This document shows, in pieces, positions 18,001-21,000 of a stretch of 64,000 nucleotides of DNA (position 1 is its first letter; each line of letters opens with the position of its first letter). The stretch lies in contig JAVKIP010000003.1 of assembly GCA_031459385.1 (NCBI GenBank), forward strand, positions 1-64,000, written 5' to 3'. The position numbers were made by a program. This stretch comes from Candidatus Fervidifonticultor secundus. GTDB taxonomy: Bacteria > Sysuimicrobiota > Sysuimicrobiia > Sysuimicrobiales > Humicultoraceae.

Positions 18001-21000
18001 GGGCGAGAATCGGTCCGGGAACCCCGGCATCGTGCACCCGATGCAGACGCCCCCGACGCTCATGCAGCCGCCCATGTGGTTGATGGCACCGCGGCTGGTG
18101 ATGTTGCACTGGACCACCGGCCCCCAACACCCGATCTCGACCAGACACTCCTTGTCGCCGTAGCGCTGTGCGAACGACCCTTCCTCGTAGTATCCGGCGC
18201 GCACGCACTGCCGGTGGACGGTCTCGCGGAACAGCCACGCCGGCCGCCCCAGTTCGTCGAACTCGGGCAGAGGCCCCAGCCCCTGCAGGAAGAGCAGGAC
18301 CGCAGCCACGGTCTCCGTGAAGTTGTCCCCGACCGGCGAACAGCCGGGGATGTTGATGACCGGCAGGCCGAAGGCGCTGCGGAAGTCGCGGCCCAGGAAG
18401 TCCATCACGCCCATCGCGCCGGTCGGATTCCCCATCGCGGCCGGAATCCCGCCCCACGTCGCGCAGGTCCCGATGGCGATCACGGCTGCCGCCTTCGGCG
18501 CCAGGCGCTTCAGCCACTCCGAGGTGGGAATCGGCCGGCGTGTGCCGTCGGGCATCACCTCGACCCCGAGTGCGGCCCAGTAGCCGCCGGTCTCCGCGGC
18601 GACCGACTCGTCCGGCACCGACCCTTCGTAGATCACGACGAAGGGGGCGCCCAACTTGCCTTCCTCCGCCAGCCGGAAGTTCTGGACGAACTCCTCTCCG
18701 GCCTCGACCGAGAGCACCGGATGGTGCAGGATCAGCTTCGGCATCGCCGGGATGGTGCCGGTCAGCAGCCCTTCCACGCCGGGGCTGGTGGCTCCCGACA
18801 CCGCGATCGTGCAGCCGTCGCACGACATCCCTGCGAGCCAGAACGCGTGCACGACCCGCAACGGCCCCAGCGGCAACTCCTGGGGCTGCGGCTTCGGCTC
18901 GCGCTCCAGCACGATCCGGGCCGTGGATTCCAGCGTCTGCTCGGGGAGCATCGTGGGGGGGCTCGTGGTGCCCATGCGTCGTTGCCTCCCGGCGACGGGT
19001 GTCGCCCGTTCAATTAGCCGGCCGCGCCACCCTCCAGCAGCGCCGCCAGGTGCGCAATCGCCTGCACCCCGTGGGCCTCGGGGGCCACGTCCAGCGGCGC
19101 CCGGCCCTGGCGGTCAGCCCCTACCAGGGCTGCGTCATAGGGAATCGTGCCCAGCAGCCGCAGCCCGTGCCTGCCGCAGAACGCGCGGACGGCTTCGGCG
19201 TCCTCTGCGCCCTGCACCTTGTTGGCCACGGCGAAGATCCGCGGCACCCCCAGCTCGGCCGCGAGGTCACAGATCTTGCGGCCGGTCTCCAGCGACTTGA
19301 AGTAGGGCTCGATGACCGCCACGATGGTGTCCACGTGGCGCGGGGTGCCGCGGCTCAGGTGCTCCAGCCCTGCCTCCATGTCGGCGACCGTTGTCGCGGT
19401 GGCGGCGCCGACCAGGGCGGCGATCAGGCTACGCACGGTAGCGTGGGTACGGCACATTCAGCCCGCCCCGGCATGGTCCACGCGGCCCATCAGCAGCAGC
19501 GTCACGTTGTCGGGCGCGCGGACACCGTACCGCCGGAAGATCTCCTCGGGAGGCGCAGCCAGCACCGCGCGCTGCACGCCTGTCTCGTCCGTCCGCTGTT
19601 CCAGGAGCGTGCGCGGCAGCGGTTGGAGCCTCTCGGCCTCGTCCGGCGGAATCCCCAGCGTGATCGCCAGGTTGGGGTTGGAATCGCCGTCTATGGCGAT
19701 GACGCGGTGGCCACGGCGCGCCAGCACCCGCGCCAGCGTGCCGGCGATGGTGGTCTTCCCCGACCCACCCTTGCCGCAGACCGCGATGCGCTGGGCGCCG
19801 TCTTGATCCGTCCCCATCGTCACGATGCCTCGCACTCCGTATGCATCGTACTGGCGGACAGATTCCTCGCGCTCTGTGCAGGCAGTTCCCGACCTTCGTG
19901 CAGAGTGGGTTCGCCCATGAACGCCCCGTGCCCTGCCGGCCGCCGGGCGTGGGAGCTCGAGCCGCCTTTTGGTCGCGGGAGGGTATTAGCTCGCTAATAC
20001 GACGACCATCATCTTCGCGCCTGCCACCTCATCGGGCTATAATGGTCTGGCACATGGCGAATCTGCAGATCAGCGAGAGCATCCGGCGTGCGCGGCAGGC
20101 GCGCGGGCTGACCCAGGCCGAGCTGGCTCCCCTCATCGGGGTGACCCAGGGGGCGATCTCCTCCTGGGAGCAGGGGAATGAGTCCCCCTCGTTCGTGCAC
20201 ATGCTGAAGCTGCTGCTCCATCTCCCCGAACTGCGCCACACCCTCGCACGGGAACAGGTTGACCTGCTGGTGCGCGTCGAGCGCGCGCTCTTCGCAGACC
20301 GCTGCACGTGTGACGACTGTTCGTGTCACACCCTGGACTCGCCCGCGCCCACCTTGCCGCCGGGCCCGCGATAGGGCAGGCCGTCTTCGTCTCCGACTGC
20401 CGCGGCCCGCGCCAGCGAAGGCGTCATCAGGATGTGCAACCCCTCCGCGATGAGGTGCAGTGCCAGGATGGTGACGGTCAACACCAGGCCCGGGAAGACG
20501 GCCAGCCACCACGCGTGCCGCATGTAGCCCTGGGCGCCCTGCAGCAGCCTCCCCCAGCTCGCCACGGCCGGATCTCCCAGGCCGAGAAAGCCCAGGCCGG
20601 CTTCCAGCAGGATCGCCCGGCCCACCTGCAGCGGCAGACCGATCAGGACGGCCGGGAACGCGCCGGGCAGCAGATGCCGCCAGAGCAGGTGGACCTCGCC
20701 TGCCCCCAATGCCCGGGCCGCCAAGGTGAACTCCCGCTGGCGCAGCGAGAGGATCTCGCTCCGCGCGACGCGCGCGATCATGGGCCAGCCCGTGACCGCA
20801 ATCACCGAGATCAGGGTCCACCGTGTGCTGCCGAAGAGCGTGACCAGGAGGAGCGCGATGAGCATGCGCGGGATGATCTGGAACAGTTCGGCCAGCCGCA
20901 TCAGGCCCTCGTCCCACCACCGGCCCAAGAGGCCCGCCGCGGCACCTGCGCCAAGGCCGATCGTCGCGGCCAGCAGCGCCGCCAGGACGCCGACCAGCAG

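Follow-up and report, generated by a model that had tools for sequence, protein, structure and literature searches.

CooC1 of Carboxydothermus hydrogenoformans (3KJE, 3KJG, 3KJH, 3KJI), which inserts nickel into Ni,Fe-CO dehydrogenase in an ATP-dependent manner, is the closest solved relative of the protein described here. In the passages of PMC3792862 used here, CooC1 forms dimers with Ni, ADP or ATP, and its Cys-x-Cys motif chelates a metal at the dimer interface. The same passages present HypB as a SIMIBI-class NTPase that is regulated by dimerisation and has Cys ligands at its dimer interface. For group 1l [NiFe]-hydrogenases, the excerpted text of bioRxiv 10.1101/2020.08.06.239558 describes an operon in which the subunit genes are split by five small transmembrane (TM) protein genes and to which HylE and HupD also belong. 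Here, we report a CooC-type ATPase gene at the head of such an operon, in which an in-frame UGA takes the place of the first Cys codon of the Cys-x-Cys motif.

The locus lies in a 64,000-nt stretch of the Candidatus Fervidifonticultor secundus genome (the window). On the minus strand, the gene for the CooC-like P-loop ATPase spans 19014-19817 and comprises 267 codons plus a TAA stop (19014-19016), with one UGA read through. Its codons run from 19817 down to 19017, and the sole internal stop of the translation is a TGA at 19458-19460 (codon 120). Under translation table 11, the frame breaks into two ORFs, 19458-19835 and 19014-19457. The first-pass annotation had joined the two gene calls (g01829 and g01828) into a single 267-aa ATPase across the TGA, and our reading of the frame agrees.

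The ATPase matched Pfam CbiA (E 5.2e-17), and its best solved relative was CooC1 (3KJE), over residues 10-237 (228 residues) and with the same E-value as reported earlier (2.4e-37). In this alignment, U120-M-C122 stands on C-Y-C of CooC1, so that codon 120, read as Sec, would take the first of the two metal-site positions held by Cys in the Cys-x-Cys motif, as had been proposed. The deviant Walker A motif GKGGSGKT (residues 15-22; 19752-19775, minus strand) aligns with GKGGVGKT of CooC1 and is invariant across 66 aligned family members. The metal-site Cys is invariant in the other 65 rows of this alignment, which are database homologs, and the family also has an invariant H125 and a nearly invariant H115. 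Cys homologs carry the source names CooC or CO dehydrogenase maturation factor. An NCBIfam scan of the ATPase returned no CooC model, only sub-threshold MinD/ParA matches and no family above its cut-off; neither HypB nor cobW families were among its Pfam and NCBIfam matches. We conclude that the two called ORFs are almost certainly one intact CooC-type (MinD/SIMIBI class) ATPase gene with Sec in the metal-binding site.

Since an ATG directly follows the UGA in the window, the window sequence alone would also allow termination and re-start, and thus a split ATPase consisting of a 119-residue P-loop half and a 147-residue half. Gene callers do cut the gene at this point, and a 148-residue fragment beginning MCRTHATV (P0080) is on record for a close relative. 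We nevertheless regard a true stop as highly improbable. In an alignment of 55 Sec-form sequences, the codon after TGA is ATG in only 28, with CTG in 18, GCN in 6, and TTG, CTC and AAC in one each. Termination would moreover remove one of the two metal ligands, at a position that is Cys in 65 of the 66 rows of the family alignment.

The in-frame TGA is conserved among relatives. Four orthologs were found in 40 related genomes (71-79% identity), and in all of them a single TGA occupies this codon. This had been claimed before, together with a spread over three further genera; the identity range and the TGA stand, whereas the orthologs belong to the window's own genus (two) and to two other genera. 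Protein conservation is equal upstream and downstream of the TGA, with invariant residues on both sides. Beyond these relatives, codon 120 is TGA in 53 and TGC or TGT in 27 of 80 homologous loci from other genomes; these loci are the best 80 of 142 matches to a Sec-family query and include relatives that are not independent, so the 53:27 ratio is no population estimate. The TGA-form loci span at least eight phylum labels. The database Cys form P0002 is 69% identical to the ATPase and has the same motif, and on an 88-row tree the Sec/Cys state changes at least six times, with four changes forced by starred branches. The TGA was unaltered in contigs from four DNA runs of one study, one of which is possibly the origin of the window DNA, and at least 120 metagenome stretches matched a Sec-specific 36-nt pattern.

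Since 27 of 80 loci make do with Cys here, the UGA might be read as Cys or Trp, by near-cognate decoding or by mis-charged tRNA-Sec; the gene might also be a recent pseudogene. We see very little chance for either. The same TGA at 53 loci over many phyla, with equal protein conservation on its two sides, rules out a pseudogene, and the case against non-Sec read-through comes from the RNA downstream of the codon and from the decoding machinery.

On the basis of covariation, the contrast between Sec and Cys forms, and the fit to published bSECIS constraints, we identified a bacterial SECIS-type hairpin at 19425-19445 (minus strand). Its core stem pairs GCUAC (19442-19438) with GUAGC (19432-19428) around a CGUGC loop (19437-19433), and outer CAC/CUG pairs include one C-C mismatch, giving a stem of 5 bp, or of 7/8 pairs when the outer ones are counted. 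The stretch GCTAC-CGTGC-GTAGC is identical in the window and the four orthologs (5/5), which bears out the earlier claim of invariance. The accompanying distance of 17 nt needed correction: from the A of UGA to the first G of the 5-bp stem we measured 15 nt, or 12 nt with the outer pairs, and the spacing between UGA and loop is 20 nt.

Covariation was analyzed in the 55 Sec rows (49 distinct) with 27 Cys rows as contrast. In the Sec rows, 83.7% of the cells were paired (slid controls, 7-39%), and 17 cells were changed on both sides, compared with a shuffled mean of 3.3 and a value matched in none of 500 shuffles. Pair 22-30 was AU in 42 and GC in 7 Sec rows and never unpaired; it was paired in 0/27 Cys rows, where 44% of all cells were paired. 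All five core pairs were present in 48/55 Sec rows and in 0/27 Cys rows, while the remaining seven Sec rows had three of the five in this register. Sec and Cys rows encode the same peptide at the hairpin, with different codon use at the same amino acids: the Ala codon GCT occurs in 50/55 Sec and 0/27 Cys rows, and the Arg codon CGT in 48/55 and 0/27, respectively. The G at loop position 2 and the following U are invariant in all 55 Sec rows. A re-start downstream of a true stop would leave unexplained why compensatory changes preserve a hairpin in the TGA forms and in no others. The contrast of one peptide with a hairpin that appears only alongside UGA also makes these sequences a textbook case on which to build models of bacterial SECIS elements.

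According to the available part of PMC13188914, bSECIS elements have a small loop with G-U, a stem of 5-8 bp, a set spacing between UGA and loop, and an energy cut-off of -7.5. The window hairpin agrees with these published constraints in its 5-nt loop, loop G-U, stem and spacing, and the energy cut-off is reached solely by a 48-nt fold. Judged on energy, the window hairpin is weak: the 27-nt fold has a predicted -6.8 kcal/mol (z -2.23) and the 48-nt fold -9.3 (z -0.44), the latter equalled in 61 of 200 shuffles. Folding energy was discarded as evidence for the hairpin, being non-significant in this G+C-rich sequence, and covariation was used instead. An Rfam scan of the whole window gave no match at the hairpin, its matches being a SAM riboswitch and tRNA only. 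In position, loop size and loop G-U, the hairpin resembles bacterial SECIS elements, which speaks for Sec rather than another amino acid at this UGA.

The genome encodes a complete Sec system, with tRNA-Sec (64.5 bits), selB (367.6 bits), selA (548.9 bits) and selD (388.2 bits) all over their cut-offs; selD itself holds one TGA. This system further argues against a true stop. Among the genomes tested, selA was found in 4/5 with the Sec form and in 4/5 with the Cys form, and its presence was therefore rejected as a discriminator between the two. The Sec-form genome without a selA match has selB (319 bits), so that selA or selB is present in 5/5 Sec-form genomes in addition to the window genome, and the single Cys-form genome with neither selA nor an above-cut-off selB uses Cys. 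Both observations run against non-Sec read-through. Taken together, the frame, the conserved UGA/Cys pair, the hairpin and the machinery make it very likely that the ATPase gene is a genuine selenoprotein gene, in which the SelB/tRNA-Sec system would decode UGA codon 120 as Sec, presumably directed by the small hairpin that starts 15 nt downstream within the coding sequence.

Downstream of the ATPase gene, and on the same strand, lie the genes of a [NiFe]-hydrogenase. The small subunit (HylS-like; 17686-18975) matched Pfam NiFe_hyd_SSU_C (E 2.2e-21) and Oxidored_q6 (E 2.5e-19). It is followed by five consecutive small ORFs (16233-17690), each with one hydrophobic helix in a hydropathy scan (HylTM1-5-like), and by the large subunit (HylL-like; 14313-16190; Pfam NiFeSe_Hases, E 1.8e-74). 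The C-terminus of the large subunit reads DPCMPCTTH followed by a 23-residue tail, and among solved structures it comes closest to 5AA5, a group 1h enzyme (E 2.3e-148). A HupD-like maturation endopeptidase (13409-14305; TIGR00072 at 61.7 bits, cut-off 47.45) and a HylE-like protein with NifU and Rieske [2Fe-2S] domains (12061-13029; Pfam NifU, E 4.1e-22; Rieske, E 5.8e-9) are also in the cluster. The start of the endopeptidase ORF is probably over-extended. In two orthologs, the small-subunit ATG lies 3 nt past the ATPase stop. An intergenic hairpin at 18991-19006 was considered as a possible regulatory element and rejected for lack of conservation among the four orthologs.

The order of small subunit, five one-helix ORFs and large subunit, with HupD and HylE in the cluster, fits the layout given in the excerpted bioRxiv 10.1101/2020.08.06.239558, and the first-pass placement of the ATPase at the head of a group 1l-type operon holds. 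By this operon layout, the hydrogenase is a predicted oxygen-tolerant, hydrogen-uptake enzyme of group 1l type. The association extends beyond the window: of 41 related genomes, five hold a HylL ortholog (84-86% identity) and these same five hold the Sec ATPase, and a hydrogenase gene was found within the flanks examined at 64 of the 80 loci. The endopeptidase gene lies directly downstream of the ATPase gene at 33 of the 80 loci.

Upstream on the same strand are genes for a Nik/Opp-type ABC importer (20326-23908; Pfam and NCBIfam), comprising a binding protein (22253-23908) and two permeases (21272-22249 and 20326-21306). The best NCBIfam matches include the nickel permease models Opp2B, NikB and NikC; no nickel or oligopeptide model reaches its cut-off, and nickel is at most a candidate substrate. 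Such importer genes also stand beside the ATPase gene in 11/80 loci.

Consistent with the earlier statement that the genome lacks Ni-CODH, a search for Prismane/CooS (PF03063) found no match in this 97.6% complete genome. The Cys-type paralogs that had been noted are likewise recovered: a ~40% identical paralog in a relative reads GGGGCACP and adjoins cooS. In the relative G007, canonical Cys-type CooC and AcsF are 37-40% identical to the ATPase, form a separate tree group and lie inside a CODH/ACS cluster. HypA and HypB do occur elsewhere in the genome, as previously listed; HypA and two HypB genes lie beside other hydrogenases on other contigs, the HypB genes on contig C13. With these present, it is not evident that the organism requires a further nickel insertase.

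In [NiFe] maturation, the endopeptidase step comes after nickel insertion. From homology, gene order and co-occurrence, we infer that the ATPase would most likely supply the large subunit with nickel in an ATP-dependent step, ahead of endopeptidase removal of the 23-residue C-terminal tail. Delivery of nickel to the group 1l-type hydrogenase of this operon is, on this analysis, slightly better than an even proposition. Because the Cys-x-Cys of CooC1 chelates a metal at the dimer interface, an ATP-bound homodimer of the Sec ATPase should by homology hold a metal ion. The ion would sit between two U-x-C motifs and be bound by two Se and two S, and the family-specific H115 and H125 may also contribute to the site.

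The cargo of a genuine Sec ATPase might instead be an Fe-S cluster or other metal for the small subunit or the NifU/Rieske protein, or its client might be a different one. Mrp/NBP35/NifH-like P-loop ATPases bridge Fe-S clusters at their dimer interface, and through its N-terminal P-loop region the ATPase also matches two further Pfam families, NUBPL iron-transfer ParA (E 1e-6) and Fer4_NifH (E 3.2e-6). HypA and HypB elsewhere in the genome point the same way, as do the NifU/Rieske gene, present in this operon and at 26/80 ATPase loci, and the 16/80 loci with no hydrogenase gene in the flanks examined. The available text of bioRxiv 10.1101/2020.08.06.239558 also reports group 1l small subunits with an altered proximal-cluster ligand. 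We consider a non-nickel cargo or client unlikely, though well above the readings that deny Sec. Among solved structures, only the nickel-binding CooC1 gives a strong match over the full length, while the Mrp homolog 3VX3 (E 9e-5) and NifH (5.4e-4) match weakly and within the P-loop region only. In addition, the Cys-x-Cys motif is that of CooC, the gene directly 3' of the ATPase at 33/80 loci encodes the step that follows nickel insertion, and Nik/Opp-type importer genes adjoin in the window and at those 11 further loci.

In summary, the best overall explanation, to which we assign a probability of roughly 0.8, is a CooC-type Sec ATPase with hairpin-directed UGA decoding and a likely role in nickel delivery to a group 1l-type hydrogenase. 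A more far-reaching proposal, that a dedicated selenium-containing nickel insertase is needed for the high-affinity, O2-tolerant group 1l hydrogenases of many aerobic bacteria from soil, sediment, the sea and hot springs, is put forward tentatively and seems to us rather doubtful. If it were true, both selenium and nickel would limit how far these lineages can oxidise atmospheric H2, and Sec would have been selected over Cys, with repeated gain or loss, on account of a selenolate's better holding and release of nickel or its resistance to irreversible oxidation in air. No earlier selenoprotein would then have been a metallochaperone of hydrogenase maturation, and the protein would act in a HypB-independent or HypB-assisting route.

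Most known selenoproteins are redox enzymes; the gene described here would extend the list by a metallochaperone-type ATPase. It also suggests that the operons of hydrogenases held to consume atmospheric H2 in soil encode an accessory factor so far left unlabelled, and that hydrogen scavenging may be tied to the supply of selenium. As gene callers split the gene, the family has been invisible as a selenoprotein in databases, though it is common. In agreement with the first-pass annotation, CooC-type ATPases are absent from the 2026 table of 119 prokaryotic selenoprotein families, as far as the available part of PMC13188914 goes, and from the NCBIfam models above cut-off. Our literature search found no paper describing a Sec CooC-type ATPase family. 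It is a widespread ATPase family missing from the selenoprotein catalogues.

Compared with the published group 1l description, in the passages of bioRxiv 10.1101/2020.08.06.239558 used here, the operon has the same order of small subunit, five one-helix proteins and large subunit, with the Rieske-type protein and endopeptidase. The term CooC occurs nowhere in those passages, in which conserved ORFs of no assigned function are unlabelled, and the supplements may list such a gene. With CooC1, the ATPase shares fold class, length, the deviant Walker A GKGGxGKT, the switch region DMxAGxEHLxRGT and the place of the metal motif. It differs from CooC1 in having Sec for the first Cys and in the flanks of the motif, H-A-G-x-G-U-x-C-x-x-H-A-T-V-R as opposed to G-G-S-Q-C-Y-C-R-E-N, and from CooC generally in being encoded beside [NiFe]-hydrogenase genes in a genome with no cooS/acsA match. 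HypB, which with HypA is the standard nickel insertase, resembles the ATPase in the proposed NTP-dependent nickel delivery before C-terminal processing. Unlike HypB, the ATPase is not a G3E GTPase and matches no HypB model. The archaeal Mrp/MinD-type HypB 3VX3, whose match is confined to the P-loop region as given above, shows that a MinD-type ATPase can fill the role of nickel insertase. G3E GTPases are generally regarded as metallochaperones. A Sec-containing G3E GTPase family is listed in Table 1 of PMC13188914, and it too is a computationally predicted P-loop NTPase with Sec in a Cys-rich motif. That family has a UxxC motif and no hydrogenase context recorded in the table, whereas the protein described here is a CooC/MinD-type ATPase with a UxC motif.

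The CooC-type ATPase gene occupies a single frame of 267 codons plus TAA, running from 19817 down to 19014 on the minus strand. Its sole internal stop is the TGA at 19458-19460 (minus strand), codon 120, at which translation table 11 splits the frame into ORFs 19458-19835 and 19014-19457. Pfam CbiA (MinD/ParA-type nucleotide-binding domain) matches the read-through product with an E-value of 5.2e-17, and its best solved relative is CooC1, the nickel-insertion ATPase of the CODH/ACS system of Carboxydothermus hydrogenoformans (3KJE, E 2.4e-37, residues 10-237). The CooC1 structures 3KJG, 3KJH and 3KJI were matched as well; other solved chains aligned over the P-loop region only, with E-values of 3.7e-8 or worse. 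In the alignment, G-A-G-U120-M-C122-R lies over G-S-Q-C-Y-C-R, so that the stop takes the place of the first of the two Cys in the Cys-x-Cys motif, which in CooC1 lies at the dimer interface and chelates metal (passages of PMC3792862). The first-pass annotation had proposed one frame across a single TGA at the first Cys of the CooC metal motif, and both proposals are borne out. His 115 (19473-19475) and His 125 (19443-19445; both minus strand) flank the U-x-C motif. Among 66 family members H125 is invariant and H115 nearly so; both are missing from CooC1 and from canonical CooC/AcsF paralogs, and they may be extra metal ligands.

The window's genome (3.30 Mb, 59 contigs, 72% G+C, contamination 5.5%) carries the full Sec machinery. 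selA (548.9 bits) and selB (367.6 bits) are mutual neighbours within about 2 kb of the tRNA-Sec gene (anticodon TCA, 64.5 bits). A second selenoprotein gene, selD (locus L013, C1:104038-104961, minus strand; 388.2 bits), contains one in-frame TGA of its own. selA was detected in 38 of the 41 genomes of the order-level sample (including the unpublished G010 and G019) and, in other phyla, in 4/5 Sec-form and 4/5 Cys-form genomes; being equally common in both, selA cannot tell them apart. In the sole Sec-form genome where selA was not matched, selB scores 319 bits; a complete chromosome of the Cys form lacks both selA and any selB above cut-off.

Orthologs at 71-79% identity were found in 4 of 40 related genomes, and all four keep exactly one TGA at the same codon, with equal protein conservation upstream and downstream of it. 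Scanning a set with one genome for each prokaryotic species yielded 142 relatives; in the best 80 of these 142, the homologous codon is TGA in 53, TGC in 22 and TGT in 5. Judged by record titles, the TGA form occurs in Armatimonadota, Acidobacteriota, Chloroflexota, Gemmatimonadota, Bacteroidota, Actinomycetota, the SAR324 group and Candidatus Entotheonella. Conservation of the TGA and of the protein across orthologs and relatives rules out a pseudogene. As to a sequencing error, a single hot-spring study provided contigs of four DNA runs in which the codon is unchanged (one run may be the window's source). Taken alone, the window sequence would allow the UGA to terminate an N-terminal part followed by a re-start, as an AUG directly follows. 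However, ATG follows in just 28 of 55 aligned sequences with TGA at codon 120 (Sec rows), the others having CTG (18), GCN (6) and TTG, CTC or AAC (one each).

In an 88-row tree with six CooC/AcsF-type paralogs as the root and the Sec/Cys column masked, the distribution of the two forms requires at least six Sec/Cys changes, four of them forced by well-supported branches, mostly inside Actinomycetota; the window's protein and four Armatimonadota-type orthologs cluster at SH-aLRT 99. A protein search returned 3041 proteins at E <= 1e-20 among 8000 candidates scored. The full-length proteins among the matches listed are Cys forms named CooC, CO dehydrogenase maturation factor or AAA ATPase; one of them shares the motif of the window's protein at 69% identity. 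A 148-residue database fragment starts directly after the stop position, and a close relative is thus mis-called. In metagenomes, a 36-nt pattern specific to the Sec form has exact matches in at least 120 stretches. Sec and Cys forms can coexist in one genome, as one Thermoleophilaceae contig (JAUJOQ010000008.1) carries both about 30 kb apart (L083 and L104). A Cys-form homolog (P0052, 52% identity) comes from the haloarchaeon Haloferax sp., and the hydrogenase-linked ATPase family may therefore extend into Archaea.

A SECIS-type hairpin with the core GCUAC-CGUGC-GUAGC (19442-19428, minus strand) lies 15 nt after the UGA, and two more pairs past a C-C mismatch form its outer part (19445-19425, minus strand). 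The stem of 5 to 8 bp, the 5-nt loop and the UGA-to-loop distance of 20 nt conform to the bacterial SECIS model as given in a passage of PMC13188914; G-U at loop positions 2-3 is invariant in 55/55 Sec rows. Across the five close orthologs, the five hairpin codons are the longest nucleotide-identical codon run of the whole gene, and outside it, of 157 degenerate codons with an invariant amino acid, just 34 have the same nucleotides in all five orthologs. The Sec rows (49 distinct) pair in 83.7% of the cells of the 8-pair helix, with two-sided changes in 17 cells, where shuffles average 3.3 and none of 500 attains 17; control registers slid by 1-3 columns pair in 7-39%. Neither the third core pair (U-A 42, C-G 5, U-G 2) nor the fourth (A-U 42, G-C 7) is ever unpaired. 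The 27 Cys rows (TGC or TGT at codon 120) encode the identical peptide H-A-T-V-R, yet only 44% of their cells pair, which does not exceed the level of shuffles, and the fourth core pair forms in none. Synonymous sites carry the difference: the Ala codon reads GCT in 50/55 Sec rows versus 0/27 Cys rows, the Arg codon CGT in 48/55 versus 0/27, and the full five-pair core is present in 48/55 versus 0/27. The case is weakened by seven of the 55 Sec rows, in which the core is reduced to three pairs in this register. Folding energy alone is no evidence for the hairpin here (-6.8 kcal/mol, z -2.23, for the hairpin; -9.3, z -0.44, for a 48-nt stretch). At the sequence level, the ATPase gene displays all computational hallmarks of a selenoprotein gene, and we consider it very probably a genuine one (probability about 0.9).

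The gene next downstream on the minus strand encodes the small subunit of a [NiFe]-hydrogenase (17686-18975). After it come five short ORFs, each with a single hydrophobic helix (about 16233-17690), then the large-subunit gene (14313-16190) and genes for a maturation endopeptidase (13409-14305) and a NifU/Rieske protein (12061-13029). The large subunit, for which the group 1h enzyme 5AA5 (E 2.3e-148) is the best match among solved structures, ends in DPCMPCTTH and a 23-residue tail. During [NiFe] maturation, the endopeptidase removes this tail after nickel insertion. The layout is the same as that of HylS, HylTM1-5, HylL, HylE and HupD in the group 1l passages of bioRxiv 10.1101/2020.08.06.239558, in agreement with the group 1l-like operon annotated earlier. 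A perfect 6-bp hairpin, GGCGAC-ACCC-GUCGCC (18991-19006, minus strand), sits in the gap from the ATPase stop to the small-subunit ribosome-binding site; it is conserved in none of the four orthologs, two of which have the small-subunit ATG 3 nt past the ATPase stop. Upstream, about 500 nt without an obvious gene (19818-20325) separate the ATPase start from the last permease gene and may be the promoter/regulatory region of the operon; all 13 differences between the window and contigs of three other runs fall inside 19909-19958. Beyond lie Nik/Opp-type ABC importer genes (20326-23908, minus strand; NCBIfam matches below cut-offs). NikA/Opp-type binding-protein genes (9475-11025 and 22253-23908, both minus strand) flank the hydrogenase cluster; nickel_nikA is the best or near-best NCBIfam match of both products, far below cut-off. 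No ABC ATPase gene was found next to the upstream binding-protein/permease genes, where the next gene (23991-25655) encodes an amidase. The window also holds a complete SAM riboswitch (RF00162, 58839-58943, minus strand; 87.1 bits).

The genome was described earlier as free of Ni-CODH, and indeed no CooS/Prismane gene was found in this 97.6% complete assembly, which has only one CooC-like gene. It has three [NiFe] large-subunit loci; HypA adjoins one of the two other hydrogenases and two HypB genes the other. The HypB matches (L115/L116) stand side by side at the start of contig C13 (4-1318, plus strand), the first cut by the contig end, and this contig also carries the third large-subunit gene. 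In the related genome G007, two Cys-type paralogs of about 40% identity (motifs GGGGCACP and GPGCYCA) are a canonical CooC adjoining cooS and an AcsF-like gene within a CODH/ACS cluster. Within fetched flanks of up to 4 kb around the best 80 of the 142 relatives, 64 loci contain a small-subunit, large-subunit or endopeptidase gene and 16 no hydrogenase gene. The endopeptidase gene is present in 60, in 33 of them less than 200 nt downstream of the ATPase gene on the same strand, and Nik/Opp-type genes (>=40% identity) in 11. Linkage of ATPase and hydrogenase genes is general. Among 41 related genomes, exactly the five with the Sec ATPase have a HylL ortholog (84-86% identity); G019, unpublished and fragmented, has a large subunit at 55% identity and no ATPase match. 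As related genomes are not independent, this co-occurrence should be read as a consistent pattern, without the weight of a statistical test. What these data show is a CooC-type ATPase gene with recoding at the first metal ligand that is inherited together with a group 1l-type hydrogenase and sits beside it.

Going by homology to CooC1 and by the parallel with HypB and UreG (passages of PMC3792862), ATP-dependent dimerisation would build a metal site from two U-x-C motifs, the large subunit would then receive nickel, ATP hydrolysis would let the chaperone go, and the endopeptidase would cut the tail as the last step. We give slightly better than even odds to the ATPase being the nickel-delivery factor of the adjacent hydrogenase. 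Its main functional rival, in which the ATPase would carry an Fe-S cluster or another metal for the small subunit or HylE, appears unlikely to us. At neutral pH a selenolate is ionised; it is also a softer ligand and, once oxidised, returns more easily to the reduced state. We speculate that these properties could matter to a nickel donor in air, hence Sec over Cys.

The feature reported in the first-pass annotation is real, and its observation and interpretation are correct, including the absence from known families: no CooC/MinD/CbiA-type ATPase is among the 119 prokaryotic selenoprotein families in Table 1 of a 2026 review (PMC13188914), where the nearest case is a CobW-related selenoprotein. 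A full-text literature search, to which subscription journals were outside scope, found no paper on a CooC-type selenoprotein family; its matches PMC5424206 and PMC12976888 concern unrelated subjects in the passages retrieved. The group 1l passages (bioRxiv 10.1101/2020.08.06.239558) mention no CooC-type gene and leave conserved ORFs of unknown function unlabelled. The novelty is a Sec form of a known kind of ATPase with an undescribed client. The protein resembles CooC1 in its family sequence features and in its proposed working mode, but the feature that gives CooC its name, partnership with a Ni,Fe-CO dehydrogenase, is absent, and we therefore assign it to the CooC-type ATPases of hydrogenase clusters rather than to CooC itself.
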